Of a DNA stretch of 29,198 nucleotides, positions 81 to 29,080 are shown piece by piece. Numbering within the stretch: the stretch's first letter is position 1; every line of letters starts with the position of its first letter. The position numbers and the translations under genes are program-made. Source of the DNA: a virus; IMG/VR virus record IMGVR_UViG_3300045988_012380, positions 1-29,198 of that record, one strand, 5' to 3'. The notes beneath the pieces were generated by a model. It did no database searches. It was not told the DNA's origin and was given only the letters and a program-made list of their open reading frames with translations.

Positions 81-103
81 ACAGACTATTTTTTTTTAGT
101 CTG
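70..103 (-). terminator. Rho-independent terminator after CDS 86..268
   Basis: Minus-strand hairpin CAGACTA-A8-TAGTCTG (103-82) is followed by TTTTCTTT. Confidence 0.55.
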
Positions 104-268
104 CATATCTTTTCTGATTAATTCTTTGATATATCCCATTTTAGAATCAACCTCATCCAATTTCTTTATGATGTCTGCGTCCGTATTGTAACTTAAACGA
201 ACGCAAATCATCGTTGTATTATTCTTATTTGATTTATTGTTAGCTCTAATCTTCGCTTCTGACGCCAT
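86..268 (-). CDS. Small hypothetical protein, possibly ribbon-helix-helix-like DNA binding
   Basis: The track ORF is 86..277. The start was moved to ATG 268, which lies 9 nt after GAGGA and forms a TAATG overlap with the upstream stop. The segment ICVRLSYNTDADIIKKLDEV..GYIKELIRKD has a beta-helix-helix flavour. This is a weak call. Confidence 0.4.
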   Translation of the reverse strand: MASEAKIRANNKSNKNNTTMICVRLSYNTDADIIKKLDEVDSKMGYIKELIRKDMQTKKK

Positions 269-600
269 TAAATCCATTCCTCAATATCTTTAATTGTATA
301 TGATTCCATATCAAATACCTTTTCTTCTTCGTCCCAACCTTCAACACAAATTTCACATGGCACTTCAATTGTGTCAACATATCCGTAAATATGATGTACT
401 TCAATTATGATACATCCTTCTAAATATCCTACATCACCTTTCCATTCAATCAAATCTAAGCAATCATTAATATCTGTAGTTCTAATTCCGTTCTCATCAT
501 AATAATATAAATCTCTGCTAGTATTTAATTCATCTGCTTTCTTCACAAAGTCTGTGTGTTCTCCAAATTCTTTGAAGTTCATCAATTGTTCTTTTGTCAT
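268..600 (-). CDS. Hypothetical protein (110 aa)
   Basis: ORF with SD AGGAGG followed by ATG. No recognisable motif. Confidence 0.5.
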   Translation of the reverse strand: MTKEQLMNFKEFGEHTDFVKKADELNTSRDLYYYDENGIRTTDINDCLDLIEWKGDVGYLEGCIIIEVHHIYGYVDTIEVPCEICVEGWDEEEKVFDMESYTIKDIEEWI

Positions 601-617
601 TTCTGCTTCCTCCTAAA

Positions 618-863
618 TTAATCAATTGTGATTTTCTTTCCGAAAATATCATTGTATCTATTACTACTAGAATACCACTTATCGCTAAACATATCATATT
701 GTTTCACGATTAAAGGATTCTTTTTTCCTGTAACAATATGAACATAATCCATATTGCTTGGCATAGAATGGACATATTCGTCCATTCTATTTTTAAGACT
801 TGTCAATGAGTTACTTTTATCAACGACTTCTCCTTGCATTACTGCATAATATTTAAATGTCAT
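618..863 (-). CDS. Hypothetical protein (81 aa)
   Basis: ORF with SD AGAGGG followed by ATG. Confidence 0.5.
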   Translation of the reverse strand: MTFKYYAVMQGEVVDKSNSLTSLKNRMDEYVHSMPSNMDYVHIVTGKKNPLIVKQYDMFSDKWYSSSNRYNDIFGKKITID

Positions 864-865
864 TT

Positions 866-1138
866 CTAGTGCCCTCTTTTTAATTGTCTCAATTCGTGTA
901 ATTCACATATCATATCCCAGTTTTTTTGGAATTGTTTCATGTAGGATGATATATTGTGAAAAACGATTCCTTGCGGTAATTCAAATTTATCAACTATGTT
1001 GTCTTTTTCAATTTCAAATATTGTCTTACTCACATATTGCTTTATTATCTTTCCGTTAAATCCATTATCGTTGAACCATTTAATAACATATTTTTCTTCT
1101 TTTGAGAAGTCCCATTTTGCATTAGTAGTATCTATCAT
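866..1138 (-). CDS. Hypothetical protein (90 aa)
   Basis: ORF with SD AAGGAGG, a 7-nt spacer and ATG. Confidence 0.5.
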   Translation of the reverse strand: MIDTTNAKWDFSKEEKYVIKWFNDNGFNGKIIKQYVSKTIFEIEKDNIVDKFELPQGIVFHNISSYMKQFQKNWDMICELHELRQLKRGH

Positions 1139-1159
1139 TTCTTGCGTCCTCCTTATATA

Positions 1160-1249
1160 TTACTTAACAAACCAAACAACCAATAACGCAATTAATAATA
1201 AAATTACAATTACATCTAAAATCATTTTGATTTTTTGCAATCTTTCCAT
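1160..1249 (-). CDS. Micro-ORF, 29-aa single-pass membrane peptide
   Basis: Not in the track (too short). AAAAGGAG is followed by 8 nt and ATG. The peptide is MERLQKIKMILDVIVILLLIALLVVWFVK, with one hydrophobic helix. Confidence 0.35.
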   Translation of the reverse strand: MERLQKIKMILDVIVILLLIALLVVWFVK

Positions 1250-1295
1250 TTCTTGTTTCTCCTTTTATGTGATACAATCAAGGTGATCTAGGGAA

Positions 1296-1629: not shown

Positions 1630-3090
1630 TTATTTAAATAGTTTCGACACCTTTTTTAATATTTTTAAAATCAAAGCAATAATCTGATTGATTCCATTTA
1701 CATTAATTTTATCGTTTTTTGAATCATTACTTGAATCATCTTTTTTAATTTCTTCTTTTTTTGGATTTGACTTATAAAAATCAATATCGTGATATATCAC
1801 ATTCTTATCCAATGGATTTGATGTATATTGATAAATCACTGCTTTGTCTGAATGGTCAAACTGAAGCGTTCCGTCATTAGAGCCATATTGCGCAATCCAT
1901 AATGGATATTCTGTATCCACATAAGTTCCAATCCATGAAGTAGATGTATACACACCTGTGTAGTATCCTTGTTCCTTAAAATAGTCGCAGAACACTTTAC
2001 AAACCATCGAACAATGTTCTTTAGTAAGTAATCCATTCTTTTCTTTCCATCCTTTTTCGCCTTGCTTAACACTTGAATCTTCCATATCCATCCAAACACC
2101 TAATTGAATATTCTTTCCTTTGATTAATTCATGTGTATATTTAGCTTGCTCTAATGCAGTTTGCTTGCTATCACAATAATCATAACAATACACGCCATAT
2201 GGAATGCCTTTATCTTCTAACATCTTAGAGAATTCGTCGAATTTTTTATCTTTAGTTGTCCACCAATTTGCACGAATAATTGCAAAGTCTACATTGCTTA
2301 AATCTACATTGCTATTGTACTCCGAAAGGTCGATTCCGTATCCTTTGACATTCTTTGTATAATCAACTTTTTCAATCGGTTTTTCTACTGGTTTAGTTTC
2401 TTCTTTAACTTCTGAGAATGTTGCCCACAATTCTTTACCTTGAATTTCAGAATTTGAAATAGCCATAAATTGAGTCTTATCTTTATTTACTACCCATCTA
2501 TGCCCATTTGCAACAACTTTATAGTAATACTCAAATTGAAAGCCTGTATTTACACGTTTGATAACTGCTCCGTTTGGTGAGCTTTGTCTAATTGCTACTG
2601 CGTCAACTGTAAGTGTAGCTAATGCGTGCTCTGATACCAATTTATTGACATCATATGTAGTGTTAGATGTTTGATTCACTAAACATTTAGGTCTAAATCC
2701 TGTATCGTATGTGGCACTGTATGGGAATTTACATAGATTAAATGCTCCTCCTACGCCACCTTGATTTTGACCTAGAAACCAACCATATTTTCCATCAATA
2801 TCAGAATCAAAAATAGCAATATGCGAATATGGTGTAACATTTGGCACTTCTTTGAATACGACAATATCACCGGGTTGATATACAGATACTTCAATACTGT
2901 TTTGTAAGATTCCATTTGTCTTTCTATATATCCAAATATCTTTTGCGTATCCGCTTACTGTACAACTAATTCTTTTGTATCCTAGTTTCTCATACCAATA
3001 CATTGCACCGTCCCAACATTGAGCACTATAATATCCATCAATGTCGAAAGCTTTGCCTAATACGGCTTTTTTAAAATCTTGATAATTTAT
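1630..3090 (-). CDS. Endolysin with CHAP, SH3b-like and GH25 muramidase domains
   Basis: The track ORF is 1630..3144. CHAP motifs are present (YYSAQCWDG Cys and SHIAIFD His). A central SH3b-like stretch is followed by a GH25-like region (GIDLSEYN, AIIRA, LWIAQYG). The start is placed at in-frame ATA 3090-3088, 9 nt after AAGGAGG (3106-3100). The 18 upstream codons carry a TGCTATAAT box and the SD and look non-coding. ATG 3144 is the canonical alternative. Confidence 0.85.
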   Translation of the reverse strand: MNYQDFKKAVLGKAFDIDGYYSAQCWDGAMYWYEKLGYKRISCTVSGYAKDIWIYRKTNGILQNSIEVSVYQPGDIVVFKEVPNVTPYSHIAIFDSDIDGKYGWFLGQNQGGVGGAFNLCKFPYSATYDTGFRPKCLVNQTSNTTYDVNKLVSEHALATLTVDAVAIRQSSPNGAVIKRVNTGFQFEYYYKVVANGHRWVVNKDKTQFMAISNSEIQGKELWATFSEVKEETKPVEKPIEKVDYTKNVKGYGIDLSEYNSNVDLSNVDFAIIRANWWTTKDKKFDEFSKMLEDKGIPYGVYCYDYCDSKQTALEQAKYTHELIKGKNIQLGVWMDMEDSSVKQGEKGWKEKNGLLTKEHCSMVCKVFCDYFKEQGYYTGVYTSTSWIGTYVDTEYPLWIAQYGSNDGTLQFDHSDKAVIYQYTSNPLDKNVIYHDIDFYKSNPKKEEIKKDDSSNDSKNDKINVNGINQIIALILKILKKVSKLFK

Positions 3091-3140: not shown

Positions 3141-3578
3141 TCATTGATATACTGAAAACATTTCTCTTAACTTATCTCTTACCATTTCTCTTTCTTCTTG
3201 AAAGTCGCTAGACGTTTTCATTTCTTCTAAGATTCCATACATAGCACTAAGAAATGCTTCTAATTCACGAATTGAATTTTGTTTATCAATTTCATTGTTA
3301 TCTTTTCGATATTCTTTTTTAGCTTCTATGTATTTCCTAAAATGGCTATTCATCAATGCGATATTATCATCAATTTCCGTTCCTTCAATATCTGTATCAT
3401 TTGTTTTTAATGCATTTATAGCAGTTCTTCCATCACTCATAGCTAGTATTGTATCAATGTCTTTGATATTGTCTAAAGCTTGGCTCATAACTTTAAAATC
3501 TAAATCATTGTATCCTTTTTCTAGTCCTCTCATTGCTTCGGTTAAGAGGTCTAGATTCCTTTTTCTAACCTCTTGCAT
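3141..3578 (-). CDS. Hypothetical all-alpha/coiled-coil protein (145 aa)
   Basis: ORF with ATG start. Its stop overlaps ATG 3144. No recognisable family. Confidence 0.5.
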   Translation of the reverse strand: MQEVRKRNLDLLTEAMRGLEKGYNDLDFKVMSQALDNIKDIDTILAMSDGRTAINALKTNDTDIEGTEIDDNIALMNSHFRKYIEAKKEYRKDNNEIDKQNSIRELEAFLSAMYGILEEMKTSSDFQEEREMVRDKLREMFSVYQ

Positions 3579-4724: not shown

Positions 4725-4934
4725 TTAGCGTTTTAGCCAATATTGACTAGCCACTGATTCAAATTGTTGTTTCTGTTGTGGCGTTAACTGCCCCATCATA
4801 TTATTCAATAATACTTGGGGATTTTGCCCACTCTGCATTAATTGTTGTAATTGATTAAATGCTTGTGGGTTTCTTTGTTGCAACATACCCATCAACATTT
4901 GTTGAGGGTTCATCATATTCATTAAAGGATTCAC
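4725..4934 (-). CDS. Small Gln/Met/Asn-rich low-complexity protein (69 aa)
   Basis: GTG start sits 8 nt after AAAGGAG and forms a GTGA overlap with the upstream stop. Composition is MNPLMNMMNPQQMLMGMLQQRNPQ... Confidence 0.45.
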   Translation of the reverse strand: MNPLMNMMNPQQMLMGMLQQRNPQAFNQLQQLMQSGQNPQVLLNNMMGQLTPQQKQQFESVASQYWLKR

Positions 4935-5356
4935 GCTTTAAGCTCCTTTCTAGGCGTTTCTTTCTCTACCCTTGTATTTATATTACTTCCGTTTTTTAGA
5001 CCTAATATCATAGCTTCTAGCTTGTCTAAGCGTTGTTCTATGTTGTCTTTCTTTGGTTCTGTCTCTTCTTGGAATCTGTATTTCTTGAAACTGCCGTCTA
5101 ATGATTTCATGTAGAACACTGAATCATTTCTATCTAGCATAATACTAGGCAAACCATTCACCATCATATTCCTTGCTTCTTGTTCATTATTGACCCATTT
5201 TCCATTAAAATCATTTAATCCCATGTTAGGCGTGATTTGGTTGTTAATATTAATAGGTGGAATATTTGCTAGTTGTTGAATGTTCTGTAATTGCGATTCA
5301 ATCATCTGCTTTTGATTCATTAAATTATTGATTCTGTCATTAATTGGATTATACAT
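4931..5356 (-). CDS. Gln/Asn-rich hypothetical protein (141 aa)
   Basis: The track ORF is 4931..5365 with a GTG start. The ATG at 5356 lies 6 nt after AGAGGTG and is preferred. Confidence 0.5.
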   Translation of the reverse strand: MYNPINDRINNLMNQKQMIESQLQNIQQLANIPPININNQITPNMGLNDFNGKWVNNEQEARNMMVNGLPSIMLDRNDSVFYMKSLDGSFKKYRFQEETEPKKDNIEQRLDKLEAMILGLKNGSNINTRVEKETPRKELKA

Positions 5357-5432
5357 TTTGCTCACCTCTTTACACTCCTAATTATATTCATGTGCAATCT
5401 CAATTTGTTTCCACATTAATGTCAAATAAATG

Positions 5433-5460
5433 TCAAAAAAAAGAGGTTTTTCAACCTCTT
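5433..5460 (-). terminator. Strong rho-independent terminator after the sigma-like gene
   Basis: Minus-strand hairpin AGAGGTT-GAAA-AACCTCT (5460-5441) is followed by T8. Confidence 0.75.
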
Positions 5461-5725
5461 AATTATCATCTAAAAACGTTTCTTTTTCACTGCTTTTTCT
5501 TGGTGGTAGGACTGCGCTATACTTCTCTACTGTATCATACTTATTCTTAATCTTTTTGATAATTCGATTCACACTAGAAACACTCATGTTTAATCTATCG
5601 GCTTGTTCTCTAACTGTCCATCCGTATATTCTTGTTCTTAAAATCATTTCTTCATCTTTAGTTAATAAAGCTAGATTAATAAATTCTTCAAGAATAATCT
5701 TATTCCAAGGTACTTGATTCGTCAT
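5459..5725 (-). CDS. Small sigma-70 region-4-like / HTH transcription regulator
   Basis: The track ORF is 5459..5746 with a TTG start. ATG 5725 is preferred, but the start is uncertain. The segment LTKDEEMILRTRIYGWTVREQADRLNMSVSSVNRIIKKIKNK looks like a sigma region 4 / LuxR-type HTH. The gene overlaps the 3' end of the holin gene. Confidence 0.5.
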   Translation of the reverse strand: MTNQVPWNKIILEEFINLALLTKDEEMILRTRIYGWTVREQADRLNMSVSSVNRIIKKIKNKYDTVEKYSAVLPPRKSSEKETFLDDN

Positions 5726-6206
5726 TGTCTTGTTCTTCGTTAACAAGTTTATCTGCTACTTCCAAACCTTTAGTTAATGCTTTTGGTACTTTGTAGCCAC
5801 ATTGTAATAAATTCTCCATAACGCTACGAGATTCATTAATACATAGCGAAGCTAACACAAACCAACCTAGCAATGTAGATACATGGAAATTAAGTCCTAG
5901 AATTTCTCCAACTTCTACCAAAAAAGCACTGAACGTGAACGCAACGACAATCATAATCCAATAGCCTAGCTTTTTAAGCACTCCAATCCATCCTTTATTA
6001 CTATTGATTTTATGAGCAATAGCCGACTTCATGCACCCCGTAATGTAGTCAACTACATTCATAAATAAGAAGAATGCGAATAAATACCAATGTTCACCTA
6101 ATACGTATGTTAATACGGCAACGGCTACTCCACCCATTGCATTCATCTTGTCTAGAAAATACATACTTCTTGTTATTTGTTTAAATCCTCCATTGTTCTT
6201 TTCTAT
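5700..6206 (-). CDS. Holin, TcdE/phage_holin_4_1-like
   Basis: The track ORF is 5700..6215. It has about 3-4 TM segments and sits directly after the tail genes. GTG 6215 abuts the SD with no spacer. ATA 6206-6204 lies 8 nt after AAGGAG. A second SD (GGAGG) followed by 10 nt and ATA occurs at 6176-6174. Confidence 0.75.
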   Translation of the reverse strand: MEKNNGGFKQITRSMYFLDKMNAMGGVAVAVLTYVLGEHWYLFAFFLFMNVVDYITGCMKSAIAHKINSNKGWIGVLKKLGYWIMIVVAFTFSAFLVEVGEILGLNFHVSTLLGWFVLASLCINESRSVMENLLQCGYKVPKALTKGLEVADKLVNEEQDNDESSTLE

Positions 6207-7230: not shown

Positions 7231-8100
7231 CTATAAACCTAAATACCTTTCATTGTAGTAAACGGTGCAAGATAAATTTGTATCTCCTGTATCTGCTCCA
7301 TATCCGATAGTGTTCTGACCTACATCAATGACCAAATTATTAAATGATGAGGTTCTATCTACTTTATTAATGCAATTTACACCATTCTTACGAATCTTAA
7401 TAGGTTTTGAGACTAAATCAATTTCTAATTTGTCGCCTTTATGCAATGTATCAATTACTCTTACATATTTGTCTTTATTAAATAGCTTTGGATTCTCAAC
7501 ATCTCCATACGCTTCAATAATTGCTCTACAATATGTTTCAGTATCGCCTTTATTCTCAATCTTAACTTCTCTAGCGAAGCTAAATGTTCCGAATTCAACA
7601 CCTTTAGAAGTAATCTCTACATTGAATTGCAAACCACCTTCGATTTGTGCAATATTCTTTGCATAATCATTATATGAAAGCAATAAAGGTTGCGTACATA
7701 AAATTGTGAAGTTTAGCTCTAAATCTCTGTAAATATTGCTTGTAGGAAGGCTATACGCATACAACCTTCCTTGGCAATATTTCTTTTCTCCCATGTACTC
7801 AACAATTACATCAAATAAATGAGAATAGTTGAAGAAACATCTAAGCACTTCTCTTTCATGTGATTTCTCTTCTAGTGTACCTTTAAAGATAGCTTTCACG
7901 CTTCTTTCCTTTGTAGGTATTCTAACACTCATAACTCTAGCACCATTTCCAAATGCGTTATCTTGAGTTGTGTATGAAGGCTCAATGTAATCAAATCCAT
8001 CTAAACCATCACTAGATGGAATTCTCCATCTTTTGTTGTCGATTTCAAATGTTTCACCATCATCCCTACGAACAATGATTCTAACTTTGTTTAAATCTAT
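7231..8100 (-). CDS. Distal tail protein (Dit)
   Basis: The track ORF is 7231..7932. The frame is open and protein-like for 56 more codons upstream with no ATG, GTG or TTG. ATA 8100-8098 lies 9 nt after GGAGG (8114-8110) and overlaps the TMP stop as ATAG. Confidence 0.7.
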   Translation of the reverse strand: MDLNKVRIIVRRDDGETFEIDNKRWRIPSSDGLDGFDYIEPSYTTQDNAFGNGARVMSVRIPTKERSVKAIFKGTLEEKSHEREVLRCFFNYSHLFDVIVEYMGEKKYCQGRLYAYSLPTSNIYRDLELNFTILCTQPLLLSYNDYAKNIAQIEGGLQFNVEITSKGVEFGTFSFAREVKIENKGDTETYCRAIIEAYGDVENPKLFNKDKYVRVIDTLHKGDKLEIDLVSKPIKIRKNGVNCINKVDRTSSFNNLVIDVGQNTIGYGADTGDTNLSCTVYYNERYLGL

Positions 8101-11619: not shown

Positions 11620-11637
11620 GATTTACCTCTTCTTTCT

Positions 11638-19532: not shown

Positions 19533-20294
19533 CTACACCTCTAACTGAAAGTAGAAATATCCGGCAGGACAAGTTTCTAAAGTTGGTACATCTGTACCTA
19601 TCTTGTATTTAATTTCCTGCTTTGCTTTTAGCTCTGATTGTTCTTTTTCCAAATCTTGAATCATTAAAAGAAGCTTTCCTCCTTCTCCTTCTCCAAGAAC
19701 ATCTTTAACAACTGCGAACCAATCATCCCATGCCTTTTGATTCTCTTGTATAGCTTTCGCATATTCTTTTTTCGCTTCTGCGATTGCTTCTGCAAATTGA
19801 TTAAAGAATTGTGTTGTATCTATTTGCTTGATTGCATTTGTAACAACTCCACATCTACTTGAATCTAATCTCGTATCAGTAATATCTGAGCCTTTAATTT
19901 CTGTTGAGTTACCTTGTGCCTTTACAGTTGCTAGAACTAAATCATATATAGAATCTGTTCTAGTGATTGATTCACTAGCTACTACACTAATATTTCTATA
20001 AGAGTCATTGTCGTTTAATCTCAATACAATGTTATAAGTCTTTGTGGAGCTAGAGCTTGATAATGTGATGGTTTCGTCATCTTTCTGCCAATAGAAAGCA
20101 CCATTAATATTTGCTCTTCCTGCTTTTACTGTAAGCGTTAATCCTTGAGCTTTCTCAACTCTCAAATGGTCTGAACTAGAATCATCTACGAACACGCCAT
20201 TTGTAAAGTAGCTTGAGAATAATCTTCTGAAAGCGTCATATAATACTAATCTATCACCATTTCTTGAGACGAATGGAAAATATGTAGTTGCTAT
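19533..20294 (-). CDS. Fibre/receptor-binding-type structural protein (conserved N-terminal ..DR..LYDAF..F..YFTNGVF motif)
   Basis: The track ORF is 19533..20195 with a GTG start. The frame is open for 33 more codons with no ATG, GTG or TTG, and it encodes the motif-bearing N-terminus. ATA 20294-20292 lies 10 nt after AGGAGG (20310-20305) and overlaps the portal TAG as ATAG. Confidence 0.55.
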   Translation of the reverse strand: MATTYFPFVSRNGDRLVLYDAFRRLFSSYFTNGVFVDDSSSDHLRVEKAQGLTLTVKAGRANINGAFYWQKDDETITLSSSSSTKTYNIVLRLNDNDSYRNISVVASESITRTDSIYDLVLATVKAQGNSTEIKGSDITDTRLDSSRCGVVTNAIKQIDTTQFFNQFAEAIAEAKKEYAKAIQENQKAWDDWFAVVKDVLGEGEGGKLLLMIQDLEKEQSELKAKQEIKYKIGTDVPTLETCPAGYFYFQLEV

Positions 20295-21694: not shown

Positions 21695-21697
21695 TTC

Positions 21698-23035
21698 TTA
21701 CCTCCTTAAATCTATATATCCACTATGGGTTATAAATGTATAGCAGAACGAATCCCAATCATCATTAATATTGTTTACGTTCTCATCTTTTGGGATGTCT
21801 TCCTTTTCATCCCATACTAATTCGCTCAATGCGTTTATCAAATTCTTACAATGTTCTTCTATCTTTAGCCTTCCTGTAACAAGTAAGCTATCAACTGTTA
21901 TAGGACGGTCTGTAAGCTCATTCTTTTTGACCGGTGCAATTATACTTCCGTCTAATCCTTCGGCGTAAAAATAAGCTCTAAGCGTGTTTATCAACGTATT
22001 AGAAGCACTGTCCGGAAATATCCACTCGATATATCCATAGCTTTCAATACAACGCTTATAGAACCTTACAAATGCTTTGCAAAACTTTGTTGCGTCTATT
22101 GCATTTGACTTTGCCATATCTCCTTCATCGAGCACCCACATATAATCCCAATCATTTGTAAATCCTGTTAAGTGCCACGAATATTTCGAGCCATTGTCTC
22201 CAAAGTCAACGCCTATGATTAAATGACTGAACCTTTTTCCTTGCTCCTTCATCTTCTCTTTTAAACGTTGATATTTGAATAGGTAAGGTTTGCAGTCATT
22301 AGCGAAATAAGGGAACACAAGTCCTTCAGCAACCATTCTTTCACCTAGAATATCTCTCTTGTACCATACAGAGTTTCTATCATATTTACTTTGAATTTCT
22401 TCGATTCTTTCTTGGCTCATTGTGGCATTGTCAAATATATTGAAATGCTCATACCTATACCAATCAAATCCCATGAATTTATCTATGTAATTCTTATAGA
22501 TGTCTGCATTTGGGTTTGATGGGTTTAAATCCCATAATGTAAATGGATGTGCGCTTGCAATCTGTCTTGCCATAGCTACCTTGATAAAGCTTGTTCTAGA
22601 ATCCTCACAATCGTAATGCTCATTTATTTCGGTAGCTATCCATCCACCATATGAGTTACCTAATATGCTCTTATATGAATCAGACTTTCCACCACCTGTA
22701 AATATCACTATCTTTTCGCCTGTCTTTGTTTGAACAAATAGTGCTTCGTTTGATTTGTATTTACCCCAACGACACCGCCCACGAAAGATATGCTCTAAGC
22801 CGAAACCATTGCAATCGCCTATATTTAATTTCGCATTCGGTAAGCTTGACCCACTCGCTAAATGTATTTTATCTTCACATGTTTCCAAATACATTGAAAA
22901 GATTATGCAGTGGTCAATCGTCTTGCCACTTCGTACCGCTCCTTCTGCTACACTTTGTTTGTAATTTAGGGCGGTCTTAATATAGTTCTTATGCTTATCT
23001 GAAAATTTCCCCCAAGGAATCGTTCTAGTCATCAT
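21698..23035 (-). CDS. terL: Terminase large subunit
   Basis: Walker A-like GAVRSGKT is present. Size and position fit. ATG start with an ATGA overlap on the TerS stop. Confidence 0.9.
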   Translation of the reverse strand: MMTRTIPWGKFSDKHKNYIKTALNYKQSVAEGAVRSGKTIDHCIIFSMYLETCEDKIHLASGSSLPNAKLNIGDCNGFGLEHIFRGRCRWGKYKSNEALFVQTKTGEKIVIFTGGGKSDSYKSILGNSYGGWIATEINEHYDCEDSRTSFIKVAMARQIASAHPFTLWDLNPSNPNADIYKNYIDKFMGFDWYRYEHFNIFDNATMSQERIEEIQSKYDRNSVWYKRDILGERMVAEGLVFPYFANDCKPYLFKYQRLKEKMKEQGKRFSHLIIGVDFGDNGSKYSWHLTGFTNDWDYMWVLDEGDMAKSNAIDATKFCKAFVRFYKRCIESYGYIEWIFPDSASNTLINTLRAYFYAEGLDGSIIAPVKKNELTDRPITVDSLLVTGRLKIEEHCKNLINALSELVWDEKEDIPKDENVNNINDDWDSFCYTFITHSGYIDLRR

Positions 23036-23373
23036 TTTAATAAATCTGCCAAAGGTGTTAAGTCCTCAATCTCATGTGTCATTGTTTGCTCAACCTTTTC
23101 GGTCTGTCCAAGCATTTGTTTACCTAACCAAATAAGCATGGTCGTATTCCCTTTTGAAGCTTTGTCAAATTGCATACGTCTTAAACTTCTTTTTGAGTGG
23201 CTTATACCTCTTTTATATGTCTGACAAAACTTTTTATTTCTTAATAATGTTCTTACTGAACATCCTAGGAAATCTGCAATTTCTTCTTGAGTACATCCAA
23301 TAGAAGCAAGCTTTTCAACTGCTTCATAATCAATCTTTATTCTTGGACGTCCTCCTGCGTGTTTCTCTGCTAT
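23032..23373 (-). CDS. terS: Terminase small subunit (HTH)
   Basis: The track ORF is 23032..23397. The sequence GGRPRIKIDYEAVEKLASIGCTQEEIADFLGCSVRTL is typical of TerS. ATG 23397 has no SD and overlaps a 49-aa ORF. ATA 23373-23371 lies 7 nt after AGGGGG and 1 nt after that ORF's stop. Confidence 0.75.
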   Translation of the reverse strand: MAEKHAGGRPRIKIDYEAVEKLASIGCTQEEIADFLGCSVRTLLRNKKFCQTYKRGISHSKRSLRRMQFDKASKGNTTMLIWLGKQMLGQTEKVEQTMTHEIEDLTPLADLLK

Positions 23374-23374: not shown

Positions 23375-23524
23375 TTAATACCCCCTGTAACAATCATATT
23401 GATTCAATTGCTTTTTAAGCCTTTGTAATCTTTTTCTTAAATCTCTTTTTCTGTATTCTGATGTCGTGTTTTGTAGTTCTTCTTCAACGCTTTTCATTTG
23501 GCGTAAATGTTCTTCTCTAGACAT
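23375..23524 (-). CDS. Micro-ORF, 49-aa basic coiled-coil peptide
   Basis: Not in the track. ATG 23524 overlaps the end of the radical-SAM gene. The peptide is MSREEHLRQMKSVEEELQNTTSEYRKRDLRKRLQRLKKQLNQYDCYRGY. Confidence 0.3.
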   Translation of the reverse strand: MSREEHLRQMKSVEEELQNTTSEYRKRDLRKRLQRLKKQLNQYDCYRGY

Positions 23525-24824
23525 GTCTTGCTTCTTCTGTTTCAAGTTCTGTAATCTCCTCTGTTCTTTTTAAGAATGTTACTGAATTATCATATTCATA
23601 AATGATGTCATTATTTTCATCAAATCCTACAGGCTTTAGAACCTTTTCAAAAATCTTATAAGGTGATTGTCCTGCTTTTGGAGAGTTCCATAAATAATGC
23701 AGATAATCTTTCATTGTCATTCCTGCATATTTTGCTCTAGTTTCTGATGTATTCGTATTAAAACCAATTGCTTTGTTACGTTCAAAATCTAAGAAGTACA
23801 TATCCTTTTCAATATCTTTCCAATGTACTCTTCCATGTTTCTTTGCAATTTGTAAAGCTCCACTAAAATTTCCTCTTGAGTAATCCCAATTCTTGTCTAA
23901 TGCGCAACAACAACAATTATTCGAGCATTCTTTAAAGTGTGCGTCTGATACATAGAATCGCATGCCTAATTCATCACATAACTCTTTCATCTTTTGAATG
24001 TATTTAGCCTTTACTTTTCTGTTAAGTCTTAAATATCCACTTCCATTTGAATGTTTTCTATAGAAATCTACAATATCAAATCCTGCACATTCACTAATCA
24101 CATCATAATGCTCCTTAGCTTGTTTAATAGAGCGCATTTCTAAGCAAAAGAACTCTGTAGTAACCGCAGTAGCTCCTGCCTTTTTGGCTTCTCTAATTAA
24201 ATCTAGATAGGTTTTATCTGATACTCCTACAATAAATGGTCGCAACCTTAAAGTTGCACCACCTTTTGATAATTCAGTATATTTTTTCATTGCTTCAAGT
24301 CTTTTTCTTGGACTTGGTACACCTACTTCGATTTTTCTTGCGTCCTCTTCATCTAGTGTGATAATACTAAACTTAACATTCCAATTGTCTGCACCTTTGA
24401 ATAATTCTTGATATTTAGGGTCGTTAAATACCCATGCCGATTTCGTACTAAAACAGATAGGATAGTTAATAGATTTCATATACTTGAGCATTTCATAGGT
24501 TTTACCATATTTCTTTTCATATCCGTCGAATTGGTCTGATAATCCACCATATTGAATAGGGCGTCTGTCTTTAATGTATTTATAGAATTGTGATTTTGTA
24601 TCTTCTCCACTGAAAATCCTTTTGCATTTCTCAACATTGATACATTTCACATCTTTATTAAGATATGCTTCTTTACTTGCACCAATGCCTCTTTGATATT
24701 GGCTAAAACAATAAACACATCCAAATGAGCAGTTGGAATATGTATCAAATGTTACTGGTAATGAGCAATCTGCGATTTCTCCTGTCCATCTTGGTGATTG
24801 ATAAGTCTCACTAATTTTATTCAC
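23517..24824 (-). CDS. Radical SAM protein (possibly SplB/COG1533-like)
   Basis: CxxxCxxC is present at CSFGCVYC near the N-terminus, in a ..Y..C..GC.YCF.. context. An extra Cys cluster occurs at CSNNCCCCALD. GGAGG is followed by 7 nt and GTG. Confidence 0.7.
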   Translation of the reverse strand: MNKISETYQSPRWTGEIADCSLPVTFDTYSNCSFGCVYCFSQYQRGIGASKEAYLNKDVKCINVEKCKRIFSGEDTKSQFYKYIKDRRPIQYGGLSDQFDGYEKKYGKTYEMLKYMKSINYPICFSTKSAWVFNDPKYQELFKGADNWNVKFSIITLDEEDARKIEVGVPSPRKRLEAMKKYTELSKGGATLRLRPFIVGVSDKTYLDLIREAKKAGATAVTTEFFCLEMRSIKQAKEHYDVISECAGFDIVDFYRKHSNGSGYLRLNRKVKAKYIQKMKELCDELGMRFYVSDAHFKECSNNCCCCALDKNWDYSRGNFSGALQIAKKHGRVHWKDIEKDMYFLDFERNKAIGFNTNTSETRAKYAGMTMKDYLHYLWNSPKAGQSPYKIFEKVLKPVGFDENNDIIYEYDNSVTFLKRTEEITELETEEARHV

Positions 24825-24873
24825 CTTATATCCTCCATTTTCTTTTAATAATTAAGCTATTGCATAATAGATG

Positions 24874-25455
24874 TTATTCATGCATTAATTCCTTGATGTC
24901 GTAGCACACTTTTAATTCAGTTACCTGCAATAGTTTCTCTAAGAATAGTTGTTCTTCCTCTGTTTCATATGTAATGATTACACGTTGTTTTTTTAGCATT
25001 TCTTCTGAATGTTCGCTAAATGTGTCAATAAGCTCGTTGTCATATCCTTCTGCTTCCATATCCTCAGTTAATGCACTAATTTCAAAATCACCGAATCCAA
25101 AATCTCTCATGTCGATTCCGTCAATTTCTTCTAGCTCTTCCATTTCTGTTTTTAATGCGTCTAAATCCCACGAAGCTTTTTCTGCCGTTTTATTATCTGC
25201 AATTCTAAACGCCTTTACTTGCTCATCTGTTAAATCATCTGCAACCACGCAAGGAACAGTTTCTAAACCTAATTCTTGACTAGCTTTATATCGTGTATGA
25301 CCTGCAACAATCACTCCATTTTTATCAATAACAATAGGCACTTTGAAACCGAATTCCTCAATAGAATTTTTAACAAATTTCACTGCTCCATCATTGATTC
25401 TAGGGTTATTCTCATAAGGTTTTAGCTCATTTAATCTTTTTTCAACAATATTCAT
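24874..25455 (-). CDS. ParB-like nuclease (ParB/Srx N-terminal) domain protein
   Basis: The track ORF is 24874..25479. ATG 25455 follows AAAGGAGGG. The sequence is LKPYENNPRIND..IEEFGFKVPIVIDKNGVIVAGHTRYKA.. Confidence 0.75.
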   Translation of the reverse strand: MNIVEKRLNELKPYENNPRINDGAVKFVKNSIEEFGFKVPIVIDKNGVIVAGHTRYKASQELGLETVPCVVADDLTDEQVKAFRIADNKTAEKASWDLDALKTEMEELEEIDGIDMRDFGFGDFEISALTEDMEAEGYDNELIDTFSEHSEEMLKKQRVIITYETEEEQLFLEKLLQVTELKVCYDIKELMHE

Positions 25456-25475
25456 TGTTTTCCCTCCTTTTAAGC

Positions 25476-25721
25476 TCATAGAGCGTCATTTACATTTAGA
25501 CAAGTATTTGTATTCTTGATGTATTCATCAACGTATAATTCCTTTTTATCGCCGTTATACGTTACCTCATAATAATTGGGTGAATGATGTACACCAATTA
25601 ATGCTTTATTGTTCTGCAGCGTTTTACACATCCATACAACGAACATTTCACTTACCTCAATATTTTGGTTTACTTGCAACACTGCATTAATTGCTAAATC
25701 ATGAAATTTTCTTGAATCCAT
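25476..25721 (-). CDS. Hypothetical protein (81 aa)
   Basis: The track ORF is 25476..25775. ATG 25721 follows AAGGAGG, and the upstream part of the track ORF is occupied by a terminator hairpin. Confidence 0.5.
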   Translation of the reverse strand: MDSRKFHDLAINAVLQVNQNIEVSEMFVVWMCKTLQNNKALIGVHHSPNYYEVTYNGDKKELYVDEYIKNTNTCLNVNDAL

Positions 25722-25737
25722 ATTCTCCTCCTTATTA

Positions 25738-25764
25738 TTAAAAGAACCGAGACAAATGCTCGGT
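25738..25764 (-). terminator. Rho-independent terminator downstream of the tRNA-like gene
   Basis: Minus-strand hairpin ACCGAG-CATTTGT-CTCGGT (25764-25746) is followed by TCTTTT. Confidence 0.6.
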
Positions 25765-25847: not shown

Positions 25848-25923
25848 TGGTTGCAGGAGAAGGATTTGCACCATTCGACCTTCGGCTAATAAGACCGACG
25901 AGCTACTACTGCTCTATCCTGCT
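25848..25923 (-). tRNA. Initiator-like tRNA with anticodon UAU (non-canonical; Ile-AUA by anticodon)
   Basis: The minus-strand 76-mer is AGCAGGA TA GAGC AGTAGTA GCTC G TCGGT CTTATTA GCCGA AGGTC GAA(T)GG TGCAAAT CCTTC TCCTGCA A CCA. It folds as a cloverleaf. The acceptor stem has 6 bp plus an A1xA72 mismatch. The D stem has 4 bp with A11:U24. The anticodon stem has 5 bp including G29:C41 and G30:C40. The anticodon TAT lies at 25891-25889. The variable loop is AGGTC. The T stem has 5 bp with one bulged T. A73 and an encoded CCA are present. Deviations from canonical form are: no GG in the D loop, G at position 55, U37 and a U31.G39 pair. Confidence 0.6.
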
Positions 25924-25929: not shown

Positions 25930-25938
25930 ATTATCGCA
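25930..25938 (-). promoter_or_regulatory. Extended -10-like box TGCGATAAT positioned to start transcription at tRNA nucleotide 1
   Basis: The minus strand reads TGC-GATAAT (25938-25930), then 6 nt (TGTTTT), then A1 of the tRNA at 25923. The -35 is poor. Confidence 0.35.
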
Positions 25939-25940: not shown

Positions 25941-25963
25941 AAAAAATGCTCACATTGTGAGCA
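25941..25963 (-). terminator. Rho-independent terminator overlapping the stop of CDS 25950..26276
   Basis: Minus-strand hairpin TGCTCACA-A-TGTGAGCA (25963-25947) is followed by T6. Confidence 0.65.
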
Positions 25964-26276
25964 CTTTCTTTAAATTCTTGTTTATCTTTCTTGGGATTTC
26001 TTCTCGTGCATAACCTACAATATTAGATGTTTTTTCTGCACTGAATCCCTTTATATATCTATACTCAATCATTGTTCGAGTTGTATCATCAAGTTGGCTT
26101 AATTTGTCTTTTACATAATTCATTCTTCTTGCATAATCTGCATGAGCCAAGAATAGCTCGGATTTTAATGGATAAATAGCTTCATCCCTTTGTAGCTCTG
26201 CTATCTTTTGCTCATAATAAGTGTATGATTGGCATTCACATAAGAAGTGTCTCTTAATATCTTCATATGTACTCAT
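25950..26276 (-). CDS. Sigma region-4-like / ArpU-type transcriptional regulator
   Basis: 108 aa. The C-terminal segment MIEYRYIKGFSAEKTSNIVGYAREEIPRKINKNLKKV is HTH-like. Family assignment is tentative. Confidence 0.45.
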   Translation of the reverse strand: MSTYEDIKRHFLCECQSYTYYEQKIAELQRDEAIYPLKSELFLAHADYARRMNYVKDKLSQLDDTTRTMIEYRYIKGFSAEKTSNIVGYAREEIPRKINKNLKKVLTM

Positions 26277-26461
26277 GATGTATACATCCTCATTAATTTA
26301 TCTTCTAATTCGCCAACTTTATTCTTTAATTTATTAATTTCATATGTTTGATTATGAATTGTTTCGTTTTTTTCTTTTAAAGTCTGATTAAGCTTAATAT
26401 TTGTCCTTCCTAATTTATTATTCTTTGAAATTAACTCTTTAATCCTTTCTTCATAATTCAT
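26273..26461 (-). CDS. Small coiled-coil protein
   Basis: The track ORF is 26273..26497 and overlaps the SSB end. ATG 26461 is preferred, but the start is uncertain. Confidence 0.4.
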   Translation of the reverse strand: MNYEERIKELISKNNKLGRTNIKLNQTLKEKNETIHNQTYEINKLKNKVGELEDKLMRMYTS

Positions 26462-26480
26462 TTCTATTAATATTCCCCCT

Positions 26481-26960
26481 CTAGAACGGTAAATCATCTG
26501 AAGCGATATTTAATCCGCTTTCAGTATATTCTTGTTGTGCGATTTGTTGTGTCAAACTTGGTTGCACATACGTGTTTTGCGTGCCGTAAGTGTTGCTATT
26601 TGCTTGATTTGGATATTGATATGCATTTACATTGGAACTATAATTCTGCCCATTAGAAGCGTTTTTAGGCGGTAATTGTACGTTACTAGCTACCACTTCA
26701 GTGATATAAATTCTTTGCCCTTGTTGATTCTCATAATTTCTAACACTAATTCTTCCTTCTACTGTAACTAAATCGCCTTTCTTGCAATACATATTTACAA
26801 TATCCGCTAATTTATTCCATGCTACGCAATTAATAAAATCTGTAGTGTTATTATATCCGTTTACTGCTACCGTAAATTTTGCTACGCTATTTCCATTTTG
26901 TGTTTTTGATAGTTCAACATCTTTAGTTAAGTTCCCTGCTATTACTGCTACATTAATCAT
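26481..26960 (-). CDS. ssb: Single-stranded DNA-binding protein
   Basis: OB-fold N-terminus (MINVAVIAGNLTKDVELSKTQNGNSVAKFTVAV), a Gln/Asn/Tyr-rich linker and the C-terminal acidic tip DDLPF. Confidence 0.9.
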   Translation of the reverse strand: MINVAVIAGNLTKDVELSKTQNGNSVAKFTVAVNGYNNTTDFINCVAWNKLADIVNMYCKKGDLVTVEGRISVRNYENQQGQRIYITEVVASNVQLPPKNASNGQNYSSNVNAYQYPNQANSNTYGTQNTYVQPSLTQQIAQQEYTESGLNIASDDLPF

Positions 26961-27534
26961 TTTCTTTCTCCTCTACAATCTTTCTCCCACAATTTGGACA
27001 ATACTTAGGTCTGTAATCGTAAAAGAACCTTTCTCCATCATCTTCATCAATTTCAATTTGTTGATACTCACTCAATACAATTCCACAATTAGAACATTCA
27101 AATTCATCAATTGAATCAAATTCTGATAAATTAGTACAAGTCTTTTCATCTAGCCATCCTAATTCCTCTGCTTGCTTGTCAATAGCTTTTAATAAAGCGT
27201 TATTTATCGTATAAGCTTCATGGTCATCATACAATTCAACTTCTTTTTCTGTTAAATCAAATGTGATTTCAAAACAATGAAATGTTCCTTTTAGTGCTTT
27301 GGTATATATTAATTTTTTTGAATCTAATTTTCTTGTAAATTCTAGCTTTTCAAATATTCCACTAGCAGTCATTTCTTCGTGTTTTGAATCTGCTTTATTA
27401 GCTAAATCTTTTAACAAATCCATAGATTTGGACATTTCTTCCATTGTTGGTAAATATCCATCTTCTCTTTCTTCTCCACACATTAAGTGAAGCAATGTAT
27501 CTATTACTTCAATGGCATTTTGATATTTATTCAT
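26953..27534 (-). CDS. Hypothetical protein with a C-terminal zinc ribbon
   Basis: CSNCG...CPNCG pair at the C-terminus. ATG start with an ATGA overlap. Confidence 0.5.
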   Translation of the reverse strand: MNKYQNAIEVIDTLLHLMCGEEREDGYLPTMEEMSKSMDLLKDLANKADSKHEEMTASGIFEKLEFTRKLDSKKLIYTKALKGTFHCFEITFDLTEKEVELYDDHEAYTINNALLKAIDKQAEELGWLDEKTCTNLSEFDSIDEFECSNCGIVLSEYQQIEIDEDDGERFFYDYRPKYCPNCGRKIVEEKEND

Positions 27535-27757
27535 TTTCTCCTACCTCTAACTCACTAAATTCTGTTTCTATTAAATCTTCGTAATCTTCATAAGGTTCAT
27601 CAGTTTCTTTTCTGTAATAAATATTTGCGCGTCCTGCTTTACCATCACTTTCCAACGTAAGAAACAAATCGTATAAATCTCCGCCATAGTTATTTATTTC
27701 TAACGATAAGTCATCTTCACAATAAATCAATCCATTATAGTAGTATTTTTTATTCAT
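27527..27757 (-). CDS. Small acidic hypothetical protein
   Basis: AGGAGG is followed by ATG. 76 aa. Confidence 0.5.
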   Translation of the reverse strand: MNKKYYYNGLIYCEDDLSLEINNYGGDLYDLFLTLESDGKAGRANIYYRKETDEPYEDYEDLIETEFSELEVGENE

Positions 27758-27820
27758 ATGCCTTTAACCTCCTATGTTTGGGCAAATACAATCCCAGTTA
27801 TAATCATCGAATTCAACTTC

Positions 27821-28216
27821 TTAATCCTTGGTGATTTCTCCATCAATAATTTCAATGATTTGGTTAAAGCACATTCCACATTCAAATGCATGAATTCTCA
27901 TATCAACTCCATATTGCTTACAAGAATTTAATAGTTCTTCTGCACTAATACCCCATGCGAATTCTGCTTCAAGTCCAATTGCGATTTTTCCCTCATCGTT
28001 CCAATCATCAATAAATACATCTAAGTCAAGAATAAATCCTCTGCGAGTTCCTTTAATCCAGCATCTGCTACATTTAACTTCACTATAATCATTCATCTTC
28101 AACGCTTCTAAATCTTCTCCGATATAAGTAACCGGTTGTAATCCTTCTAAAACAAATTTTGTTAAATTCTCTTTTGTCCCTCTTACTCTTAAAGTTCCTG
28201 CACACCAATTAGGCAT
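27821..28216 (-). CDS. Hypothetical protein with an MPNWC N-terminal motif
   Basis: ORF with ATG start. The N-terminus MPNWCAGTLRVRG resembles a recurrent phage/plasmid domain of unknown function, as I recall it. Confidence 0.5.
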   Translation of the reverse strand: MPNWCAGTLRVRGTKENLTKFVLEGLQPVTYIGEDLEALKMNDYSEVKCSRCWIKGTRRGFILDLDVFIDDWNDEGKIAIGLEAEFAWGISAEELLNSCKQYGVDMRIHAFECGMCFNQIIEIIDGEITKD

Positions 28217-28628
28217 TTTTTATTCCCTCCACTTTTCTTTCTCCTGTCTTTGCATATTCTAGTGCTTCAATAAATGATTTAAACATAGAAATTTCAAAAT
28301 TCAGTATTTCTATTTGACCTACGAGACTATTAATATGATGGCTTTCGCCCTTATTTATATAATCAATTATCTTATTTTCATGATGCAAAATTATTTCACG
28401 GTCTTCATCAATCGTTCTCTTATACGTTCCGATTAATCCATCAATTCTTTCTTCAATCATTTGAAGATCATCCTCATTTGAATCGTCATTAATAATGGCG
28501 TTGTATAAGTATTCAATACGTTCTCTGTATTCCTCTTTTGTGATTTCTGATAAAGGCTTTTTAAATCCTGTAGGCAACAATTTAAATCCGAATTCTTTTT
28601 CAAATTCATCTAAATCTTTTTCTGTCAT
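28209..28628 (-). CDS. Hypothetical protein (139 aa)
   Basis: The track ORF is 28209..28643 with a TTG start. ATG 28628 follows GGGAGGTGG and forms an ATGA overlap. Confidence 0.5.
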   Translation of the reverse strand: MTEKDLDEFEKEFGFKLLPTGFKKPLSEITKEEYRERIEYLYNAIINDDSNEDDLQMIEERIDGLIGTYKRTIDEDREIILHHENKIIDYINKGESHHINSLVGQIEILNFEISMFKSFIEALEYAKTGERKVEGIKNA

Positions 28629-28864
28629 ACTTCCACCTCCCAATCTTGTGGCATTTGAAATACTTTAGTGTATAGATATTCTGTTCGCTTTTGAATTTCA
28701 TCTAATACCTTTAAAGCTTTTTCTTTTGTTGAGTACATACCTAAAGAAACGCTAATACTTGTTCTACAATTTAATATAATCACTTCATATTTACCACTGT
28801 GGTCTTCAACTGCGAAAGAGTCGCAATCCATTAAAATATTTCCACCTTGACTTCTAATCCACAT
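28625..28864 (-). CDS. Hypothetical protein (79 aa)
   Basis: AAGGGG is followed by ATG. Confidence 0.5.
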   Translation of the reverse strand: MWIRSQGGNILMDCDSFAVEDHSGKYEVIILNCRTSISVSLGMYSTKEKALKVLDEIQKRTEYLYTKVFQMPQDWEVEV

Positions 28865-28867
28865 AAC

Positions 28868-29080
28868 TTACCCCTTTGAATTTTCTTTTAATTCTTTCAC
28901 AAATCTTTTTAGCTCAAAATAAAGCAAGATTGGGAGTATAATCGGATAAAGGATTGTTGCTAATACAAAATAATCATTTGCTAAATAACTGATACCTTTT
29001 ACGAAATATGCAACCCACATCCCAATCACAAGATAAACTACTAAAAATATTACAATCTCGACCATAATCTCAATATCCAT
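28868..29080 (-). CDS. Small membrane protein (70 aa, 2 TM)
   Basis: The track ORF is 28868..29128. The start was moved to ATG 29080, which forms a TAATG overlap with the upstream stop. There are two hydrophobic helices. Confidence 0.45.
   Translation of the reverse strand: MDIEIMVEIVIFLVVYLVIGMWVAYFVKGISYLANDYFVLATILYPIILPILLYFELKRFVKELKENSKG

Follow-up and report, generated by a model that had tools for sequence, protein, structure and literature searches.

To our knowledge, every natural initiator tRNA described so far, in any system, carries the anticodon CAU, and a full-text literature search, which was not exhaustive, returned neither a natural non-CAU initiator tRNA nor a phage that uses ATA as a start codon. 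Phages reportedly do recode stop codons by means of suppressor tRNAs, as Ivanova in 2014 and Borges in 2022 are said to have described for crAss-like, Lak and other gut phages. In the laboratory, initiators whose body is kept and whose anticodon is changed (amber CUA, GAU/GAC/AAC and orthogonal systems) start translation at the matching codon after a Shine–Dalgarno sequence (SD) (PMC11744186), and the amino acid they carry follows the anticodon-dependent synthetase (PMC11744186; bioRxiv 10.1101/2021.05.25.445580). In Staphylococcus aureus, the AUA starts of infC, ccpN and citZ belong to isolated regulatory genes and are read inefficiently by the normal tRNAfMet (bioRxiv 10.1101/2025.06.19.660503). 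Here we describe IMG/VR virus record IMGVR_UViG_3300045988_012380, a stretch of 29,198 nucleotides (the window) in which ATA is the start codon of some 12 out of roughly 43 genes and a single tRNA, with the anticodon UAU, is encoded. On balance we favor the reading that this phage uses natural orthogonal initiation, in which a non-CAU initiator tRNA, the first of its kind, reassigns AUA, in the form A-AUA after a strong SD, as the start codon for about a quarter of the genes.

The UAU tRNA and its ancestry

The tRNA lies at positions 25848–25923 on the minus strand, from which all genes of the window (GC content about 33%) are read; the features below are on this strand. ARAGORN calls it tRNA-Ile(TAT), and the Rfam tRNA model matches it with 49 bits (cmscan), flagging a non-standard pair at 1:72. 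Written by structural element, it reads AGCAGGA UA GAGC AGUAGUA GCUC G UCGGU CUUAUUA GCCGA AGGUC GAAuGG UGCAAAU CCUUC UCCUGCA ACCA, which gives A1×A72, G2:C71, C3:G70, A11:U24, G29:C41, G30:C40, U31·G39, U37, A73 and an encoded CCA. A 1:72 position without a Watson–Crick pair excludes EF-Tu and is needed for formylation, for which G2:C71 and C3:G70 are determinants of the formyltransferase; the purine 11:pyrimidine 24 pair of initiators is reversed in elongators. When we searched 5,426 Escherichia coli genomes with blastn (E ≤ 10), the matches were initiator genes only, with a median of 4 loci per genome. The best of them, at 77.9% identity over 99% of the tRNA, was the tRNA-Met triplet between mltA and amiC; this triplet is metZWV, a set of initiator genes.

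The tRNA therefore combines the 1:72 mismatch, the G2:C71, C3:G70 and A73 set, A11:U24 and initiator genes as its closest sequences with two departures from an initiator, namely UAU in place of the CAU anticodon and an incomplete set of the three G:C pairs 29:41, 30:40 and 31:39. What would mark an elongator is lacking: position 1:72 is not paired, no pyrimidine 11:purine 24 pair is present, and position 37 is U rather than the A37 (the t6A site) expected of tRNAs that read ANN codons. These features hold across the family. All 11 distinct variants have an unpaired 1:72 (A×A or C×A) with pairs 2:71 to 7:66 100% paired, and G2:C71, C3:G70, A11:U24, G30:C40 and A73 are invariant; six pairs with compensatory double changes back the cloverleaf, and the anticodon loop CUUAUUA, including U37, is invariant in the clade. 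Judged by these features, the tRNA is derived from tRNAfMet and of initiator type save for its anticodon.

ATA start codons and the base that precedes them

Ten long open reading frames (ORFs) of the window open with ATA codons at positions 21694, 20294, 18137, 14669, 12919, 12141, 10676, 8100, 6206 and 3090, each with a strong SD, defined as at least 5 nucleotides of AAGGAGGT, located 6–10 nucleotides to its 5′ side. The ATA stands at, or a few codons from, the upstream in-frame stop codon, and the first ATG, GTG or TTG follows 7 to 140 codons downstream without an SD. Counting SD-preceded codons within 25 codons of the 5′ boundary of an ORF, we find 16 ATG, 10 ATA, one ATT and no ATC; inside genes, ATT is 2.6–4 times commoner than ATA. 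Relaxed initiation at any AUN codon is ruled out, since neither ATT (1) nor ATC (0) shows the enrichment after SDs that ATA does (10).

Protein families agree with these positions. The PHROG matches of the portal, a head protein, the major capsid protein (MCP), a phrog_3099 protein, the tape measure protein (TMP) and the distal tail protein (Dit) all begin 5′ of the first canonical start. The N terminus of the MCP, IPNQIALAKTYV (IPNQIALAK..), aligns column for column with the MPNN or MANN of full-length homologues of 65–69% identity, so that the ATA aligns with Met1 of homologues that start at ATG. The three closest public MCP clusters are cut to 256–275 residues, which fits gene callers blind to an ATA start, and the 1,224 public sequences of the capsid cluster (P0001–P0003, P0121–P0134), among them the Holdemanella RefSeq entries WP_337526991.1 and WP_288536604.1, are annotated at 256–283 residues and not 289. 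As gene callers cannot use ATA, we regard this cluster as annotated too short. In L045, a relative whose MCP is 84–85% identical, the same shortening appears as "intergenic gaps" of 60–110 nucleotides. The practical effect is that gene callers shorten or miss ATA-initiated genes.

Could the ATA codons be an artefact, produced by systematic sequencing or assembly errors at ATG or by the decay of pseudogenes? This is hardly credible, because dozens of assemblies made independently (IMG/VR, ENA, Logan and RefSeq-derived) contain these ATA codons, internal methionine codons remain ordinary ATG (155 in the late genes), and intact ORFs give end-to-end matches to protein-family profiles. The ATA start positions are real.

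The base before the start codon links these codons to the tRNA. All 12 ATA starts that we accept in the window have A at position −1 (for example at 21695, 14670 and 10677). In the first set of starts, A at −1 was found at 10 of 10 ATA starts and at 17 of the 33 others (p = 0.007). Family-wide it precedes the start in 75 of 83 SD-ATA orthologue groups as compared with 131 of 254 SD-ATG groups (52%; p = 3e-11), the orthologue groups not being fully independent, and the eight exceptions seem for the most part doubtful as starts. At position 37, the tRNA has U instead of the A of tRNAfMet, a base that complements the A at −1. Work on A37 variants of tRNAfMet has established that position 37 pairs with mRNA position −1 (Hollerer and Jeschek, 2023; PMC10018350). 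Given the conserved A, U37 and this known contact, the start signal looks like A-AUA read by 3′-UUAU-5′ (positions 37–34), and the match ties the tRNA to these ATA codons independently of phylogeny.

In the close relatives, 38 IMG/VR contigs whose portal is at least 95% identical, ATA is kept at five start sites wherever these were recovered: the portal (38/38), the head protein (38/38), the MCP (33/33), the gene at 12141 (31/31) and the TMP (26/26). The tRNA is present in 35 of the 38; the other three are partial and end between the tRNA site and the portal. L045 has ATA at the portal, head protein, MCP, TMP, Dit, holin and other genes, as well as at a QueT gene and at one start where the window has ATG (window 4700, L045 19911); its locus ends 1.2 kb upstream of the small terminase gene (TerS), and the tRNA site would lie beyond that edge. 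More deeply separated lineages, whose tRNA has other forms (L098 and L090/L107/L133), have ATA at the portal, MCP and TerS; in L098, whose MCP is about 53% identical, these ATA codons come right after in-frame stops, and the C1×A72 version of the tRNA lies immediately upstream of TerS.

Three outgroup lineages with MCPs of 65–69% identity use canonical starts only. L145–L147 have no tRNA within 10 kb, and the corresponding slot of L046 and L048, upstream of TerS, is taken by a tRNA(UAU) that resembles an elongator, with G1·U72, U11:A24 and A37. The ATA starts thus track the initiator-type tRNA body and not the mere UAU anticodon. We found no relative, among the 38 close contigs and the deeper lineages, that has ATA starts and demonstrably lacks the tRNA. 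Between the window and L045, one of 19 orthologous starts has flipped, a rate below the 27.7% at which synonymous A/G third positions diverge (p = 0.017), indicating that ATA and ATG starts are not simply interchangeable. The original prediction had linked the UAU tRNA to the ATA starts and had proposed a comparative test of whether the two co-vary at orthologous sites, and the link is supported: the tRNA is found in every sufficiently complete relative with ATA starts (35 of 38 contigs, five sites invariant), is absent or elongator-like in the outgroups with canonical starts, and has a U37 that matches the A at −1.

The elongator-like tRNA(UAU) of L046 and L048 (positions 3362–3436 in each) has the same odd UGCAAAU T-loop and GG-less D-loop as the tRNA of the window. 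In L047, a different tRNA-like sequence that ARAGORN does not call occupies the same slot (approximately 3355–3440).

Among the individual genes, that of the portal (20291–21694, 467 residues) starts at ATA 21694, six nucleotides after the SD AAGGAGG and with A at −1; its phrog_533 match covers residues 22–465, the first canonical start comes only at codon 32, and L045 and L098 share the ATA. The head protein gene (19533–20294, 253 residues; ATA 20294, SD AGGAGG) matches phrog_1220 from residue 3 and reaches a canonical start at codon 34. A tail fibre/GDSL-like gene (16620–18137, 505 residues; ATA 18137, SD GGAGG at a spacing of 7) lies in a variable region, and few of its orthologues were recovered. 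The MCP gene (13800–14669, 289 residues) starts at ATA 14669 after AAGGAGG, and residues 3–288 of the protein match positions 3–294 of phrog_422, a profile of length 297. For the minor-capsid/head–tail gene (12557–12919, 120 residues; SD GGGAGG), the probable start ATA 12919 overlaps the upstream TAG stop as ATAG; its orthologue is kept in L045, in which the downstream ATG is ATC, and in L098, in which the ATA comes right after the stop. In the tail module, the gene of the phrog_3099 protein (11638–12141, 167 residues; ATA 12141, SD AAGGAG) has its first ATG at codon 17, and profile positions 6–169 match residues 11–166.

The TMP gene (8097–10676, 859 residues) starts at ATA 10676 after the SD AAGGAGGTG. 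This ATA adjoins an in-frame TGA, the first ATG comes 140 codons on, at codon 141, and TMP profiles match from residue 7. The Dit gene (7231–8100, 289 residues; ATA 8100, SD GGAGGTG) matches phrog_33 from residue 25, with the first ATG at codon 57, and L045 keeps the ATA. The holin gene (5700–6206, 168 residues; Pfam Phage_holin_4_1) has ATA 6206 as its probable start, 8 nucleotides after AAGGAG; an upstream GTG falls within the SD, and the ATA recurs in L045. The endolysin gene, encoding CHAP and GH25 domains (1630–3090, 486 residues), probably starts at ATA 3090, at a spacing of 9 from the SD TAAGGAGGA; the alternative ATG 3144 has no SD and overlaps the upstream gene as ATGA. TerS (23032–23373) probably starts at ATA 23373, six nucleotides after GGGGGT, with ATG 23397 as an alternative that has no SD. 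In L098 and in relatives of the L002 type, one of which has the identical tRNA, TerS starts at ATA and contains no in-frame ATG at all. ATA 23340, which has AGGAGG upstream, was ruled out as the TerS start because it is downstream of the conserved GGRP motif.

One ATA start lies in the early region. The gene downstream of that for the single-stranded DNA-binding protein (SSB) encodes a coiled-coil protein of 64 residues (26273–26467), and ATA 26467 is its probable start, at a spacing of 6 from the SD AGAGGGGGA. SSB ends in the canonical acidic tail DDLPF with TAG at 26481, a stop embedded in the SD of this next gene (26481–26509). In most relatives the frame of the gene is closed by the TAG of SSB four codons 5′ of the ATA, and the SD TAGGAGGTG stands 6–8 nucleotides from it. 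The alternative ATG 26461, two codons after the ATA, would have an SD spacing of 12–14 and is ACG in L136. ATG 26497, taken for the start in the original prediction, was rejected, as it lies in another frame inside the SSB gene and is ACG in three relatives. From the spacing, the spurious ATG 26497 and the ACG of L136, ATA is probably the start codon of at least one gene in the early region, 5′ of the tRNA. Two further codons, ATA 5752 and ATA 29086, are ambiguous, with a weak SD or a canonical start nearby, and have G at −1, unlike the 12 accepted starts.

Genomic setting and the putative tRNA transcription unit

The window is about three-quarters of the genome of a temperate siphovirus whose host genus is probably Holdemanella (Erysipelotrichaceae). 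Members of the capsid cluster in RefSeq are annotated as Holdemanella sp. proteins, and several related contigs come from human gut metagenomes. A megablast search with 25 kb of the window gave no match to cultured phages; by MCP, the isolates nearest to it, Eggerthella phage PMBT5 (47%) and a phage of Ruminococcus gnavus (42%), are too distant for use. We consider the clade temperate because L001, a relative with an identical tRNA, encodes an integrase (phrog_1) and, in divergent orientation, a CI-like repressor at 11216–13620. The early region of L001 is largely non-homologous to that of the window, such that early regions are mosaic.

Transcription runs from a region of replication and regulatory genes (those for SSB, a number of small proteins and a sigma-r4-like regulator) to the single tRNA and then, toward TerS, through genes for a DUF6275 protein, a ParB-like protein and a radical-SAM protein. 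The late genes follow in the order TerS, large terminase (TerL), portal, head proteins, scaffold, MCP, connectors, tail proteins, TMP, Dit, holin and endolysin, and 3′ of the endolysin lie four small genes, moron-like by position and all initiated at ATG. The slot between the tRNA and TerS (23517–25721) holds variable cargo, here the DUF6275 protein, the ParB-like protein and the radical-SAM protein of 435 residues; several relatives (L045 at 780–1238, and L015, L030 and L133) have in this slot a QueT-like queuosine-precursor transporter gene with an ATA start. Two ATG-initiated genes 5′ of the TMP gene (10697–11619) occupy the usual position of a tail-assembly chaperone pair, and the second of them matches Phage_Gp15 in relatives.

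The tRNA appears to form a unit of its own. Directly upstream, a terminator-like hairpin, GTGCTCACAATGTGAGCA followed by TTTTTT (25941–25964), reaches into the 3′ end of the gene for the sigma-r4-like regulator. It is succeeded by a TGn-extended −10 promoter-like element read from the sequence, TGCGATAAT (25930–25938), which ends 6 nucleotides upstream of tRNA base 1. In relatives the element is TGTAATAAT, TGTGATAAT or TGCAATAAT, and among the upstream sequences some 17 distinct variants keep both hairpin and element. Another terminator-like hairpin, ACCGAGCATTTGTCTCGGT with TCTTTT after it (25736–25764; hairpin at 25764–25746), lies 84 nucleotides downstream of the tRNA. The arrangement of terminator, extended −10 promoter, tRNA and terminator suggests an autonomous unit at the early/late junction, with a putative promoter that would allow host RNA polymerase to transcribe the tRNA without phage late activators. 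The original prediction called the tRNA initiator-like, which its tRNAfMet-like features support, and placed it in the early region. It is not embedded in the early operon: because it has its own unit behind a terminator and an extended −10 element, its timing cannot be read from position. Transcription may start at or beside A1, given the 6 nucleotides between the −10 element and tRNA base 1, which would fit a change from C1 (the L069/L098 type, with a longer leader) to A1 in the lineage of the window.

The original prediction also divided start codons by module, with ATG or GTG throughout the early and post-lysis genes and every SD-ATA start between TerS and the endolysin. The four post-lysis genes are indeed all ATG, but the early gene at 26467 probably starts at ATA, and relatives with the same tRNA have SD-ATA starts at genes for two DnaD-like replication-initiator types, a 195-residue early protein, a sigma-like regulator, QueT and a second TerS type; some of these pre-terminase starts lie upstream of the tRNA. 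The late bias, 10 of 27 late genes as against 0 of 16 others with the starts first assigned (Fisher p = 0.007), becomes 11 of 27 and 1 of 16 with the revised starts (p = 0.017; p = 0.06 against early genes alone), and 16 of the 27 late genes, TerL and the scaffold among them, have canonical ATG, GTG or TTG starts. With respect to module, the start codons show a bias and no strict partition.

A search with a generic pattern brought up further genes for initiator-like tRNAs with the anticodon UAU. Their carriers are unrelated contigs of viral or metagenomic origin, often rich in GC, and a few bacterial genomes (L127, L120/L138, L094/L143, L051/L113, L061/L139, L052/L067, L005, L102 and L089, the last being Roseobacter insulae NZ_JAHXDN010000003.1). 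Some are near-perfect copies of tRNAfMet, with C1×A72 and A11:U24, and the three G:C pairs of the anticodon stem are complete in L127 and nearly so in L120/L138. These genes hint that the device arose repeatedly. L138 (ERZ779669 NODE-22, 95.8 kb) looks like a phage with recoded stop codons: a tail protein (phrog_5302) on the plus strand at 4819–5853 is broken into consecutive ORFs, the match to a reverse transcriptase spans just a part of the profile, and a tRNA with the four-base anticodon "tgaa" (ARAGORN) lies beside the initiator-like tRNA(UAU). Its ORFs without ATG were rejected as ATA-start genes, being gene fragments split by in-frame stops.

Proposed mechanism, alternatives and known systems

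We think it likely that the phage tRNA, once charged, stays off EF-Tu, is formylated and decodes A-AUA in the P site. The 1×72 mismatch would keep it from EF-Tu and, with G2:C71, C3:G70 and A73, would mark it as a substrate for formylation and for IF2. It would be produced from a small transcription unit of its own and enter the 30S P site, where perfect pairing with an AUA 6–10 nucleotides past a strong SD would lead IF3 to accept the complex, and U37 would add a fourth pair with the A that precedes the ATA. Genes for the capsid, portal, tape measure, Dit, holin, endolysin and TerS and at least one early gene, some 12 in all, would begin in this way. With the host initiator alone they would be translated poorly and so would depend on the phage-supplied tRNA, giving a phage-private initiation channel that is genome-wide and late-enriched but not late-limited. 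Without a special tRNA, AUA reaches about 0.1–1% of AUG in E. coli and, with an extended SD, 10–30% in S. aureus (bioRxiv 10.1101/2025.06.19.660503). At such levels of host reading, the ATA genes would be strongly boosted by the phage tRNA.

As to the amino acid, the original prediction cautioned that fMet, Met or Ile could not be told from sequence, and this caveat stands. MetRS depends on C34, and initiators with a switched anticodon take the amino acid of the new one; the residue is for this reason probably isoleucine, and by known synthetase identity rules formylisoleucine (fIle) is probably the likelier of it and fMet.

Several points weigh against this mechanism. The whole case is drawn from sequence, and the S. 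aureus figure shows that AUA can be read appreciably without a dedicated tRNA. Five of the 12 ATA starts (26467, 23373, 12919, 6206 and 3090) have a conceivable canonical alternative nearby. The anticodon stem keeps two of the three canonical G:C pairs in the window, with U31·G39 as the third pair, and only G30:C40 in the majority clade variant, CUAGU/GCUAG; natural initiators with incomplete sets do exist, for example in mycoplasmas. The bulged base in the T-stem, the UGCAAAU T-loop and the D-loop without GG make the tRNA atypical and possibly impaired; the sister lineages L064/L133, L090/L107 and L069/L098 have normal T- and D-arms. The unrelated contigs with an initiator-like tRNA(UAU) show no SD-ATA starts in up to 15 kb around it; this holds for L113, L139, L095, L005 and L052, and L094 has no SD usage.

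The same facts can be read in other ways. The original prediction saw in them a timer, in which an early-made tRNA gates packaging, virion and lysis genes until it has accumulated. The late bias (11/27 versus 1/16), the use of ATA by the lysis genes and the most abundant structural genes, the all-ATG post-lysis genes and a start state conserved beyond the neutral rate would all suit such a gate, and in a temperate clade a holin and endolysin that are untranslatable without the tRNA would make sense. We nevertheless find it unlikely. ATA also heads the early gene at 26467 and, in relatives, replication-initiator, regulator, 195-residue early, QueT and TerS genes; with canonical starts in 16 of the 27 late genes, TerL and the scaffold among them, there is no block-wise gate on packaging and assembly; and the conserved extended −10 element right after a terminator suggests transcription by host RNA polymerase from entry, possibly even in the lysogen, which would leave little delay. 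As an argument from comparison, tRNA-dependent AUA initiation appears well supported, and the late-gene timer does not.

The tRNA might instead have served as a toxin-resistant substitute initiator (C34U, A37U, G31U/C39G) that reads AUG by U·G wobble, with ATA drifting in secondarily, by a neutral ratchet that an AT-rich genome would favor, once ATG-to-ATA changes became tolerable. The cut that VapC toxins make in tRNAfMet falls between positions 38 and 39, and the differences of the phage anticodon arm from tRNAfMet all fall at 31, 34, 37 and 39; ATA and ATG starts are mixed in all modules, and one orthologous start has flipped (window 4700 versus L045 19911). Phage tRNAs have been proposed to dodge anticodon nucleases through anticodon-loop mutations (PMC10264068). 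We rate this origin as quite unlikely, given that starts flip far less often than synonymous A/G sites (1/19 versus 27.7%, p = 0.017), that the preference for A at −1 is specific to ATA and absent at ATG, which favors a dedicated A-AUA signal over drift, and that no toxin or defence context was identified. It is very unlikely that the host tRNAfMet simply reads ATA weakly, with strong SDs compensating, and that the phage tRNA is an elongator tRNA-Ile(UAU) for codon supply. The S. aureus efficiencies, the elongator-like tRNA(UAU) of L046 and L048 in the same slot and the ARAGORN label of tRNA-Ile speak for it, as does a likely host in the Erysipelotrichia, which are related to the Mollicutes, in which unusual starts are commoner. 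Against it stand the invariant 1×72 mismatch, A11:U24, U37 in place of A37/t6A, E. coli matches to initiator genes only, and the complementarity of the A at −1 to U37. ATA makes up 16–22% of the phage's Ile codons (12–17 per 1000 codons), phages with an elongator-like tRNA or none have no ATA starts, and weak starts would be senseless for the most abundant virion proteins.

If AUA initiation by the phage tRNA is real, it is a natural exception to the rule that initiator tRNAs have CAU, and phages recode starts besides stops. It would supply synthetic biology with a naturally optimized orthogonal pair of initiator and start (UAU and U37 with SD-N6-10-A-AUA), and its incomplete G:C set and odd elbow would make it a new means of studying how an initiator is verified by IF3 and in the P site. 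It also suggests a possible mechanism by which prophage genes are made to depend on a phage factor; candidates for the selective advantage are a late or lysis gate, insulation of prophage genes, a defence-resistant initiator and host-read weak starts. Holdemanella can be cultivated, and the N-terminal residue, the dependence on the tRNA and the −1/37 pair are directly testable predictions.

Compared with bacterial tRNAfMet (E. coli metZWV/metY), to which it is 77.9% identical, the phage tRNA has the same unpaired 1×72, G2:C71, C3:G70, A11:U24, A73 and AGGUC variable loop and, in the variant of the window, G29:C41 and G30:C40. It differs in having UAU and not the universal CAU, U37 for A37, U31·G39 for G31:C39 and, in this lineage, A1 for C1, a bulged T-stem, a UGCAAAU T-loop and a GG-less D-loop, and in being encoded by a phage. 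With the engineered anticodon mutants it has its design in common, an initiator body with a changed anticodon; unlike them, it is natural and conserved with compensatory changes, and it comes with a dozen recoded starts of essential genes and a co-varying −1/37 contact. Host attenuator starts at AUA or AUU (infC in many bacteria, and infC, ccpN and citZ in S. aureus) likewise present a conserved AUA after an extended SD, whereas the phage places AUA at the head of its most highly expressed virion genes and has a cognate initiator-type tRNA. Mitochondrial tRNAMet with f5C34 (PMC11775629) also starts at AUA through full anticodon pairing; it differs from the phage system in that one tRNA serves initiation and elongation, AUA is Met internally as well, the gene encodes CAU and the reading depends on a base modification. 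The likeness to stop-codon recoding is one of analogy: no in-frame stops were found in the window, where all genes are uninterrupted under table 11 and the sole tRNA is UAU. In both cases a phage tRNA would alter the meaning of a codon and leave genes poorly expressed without a phage factor, and control of late and lysis genes has been proposed for stop recoding. In contrast to such a control system, the ATA starts do not divide cleanly into early and late. Stop recoding acts in elongation and termination, on stops inside genes, whereas the phage tRNA would act at initiation, on a sense codon, and leave internal AUA as Ile untouched.

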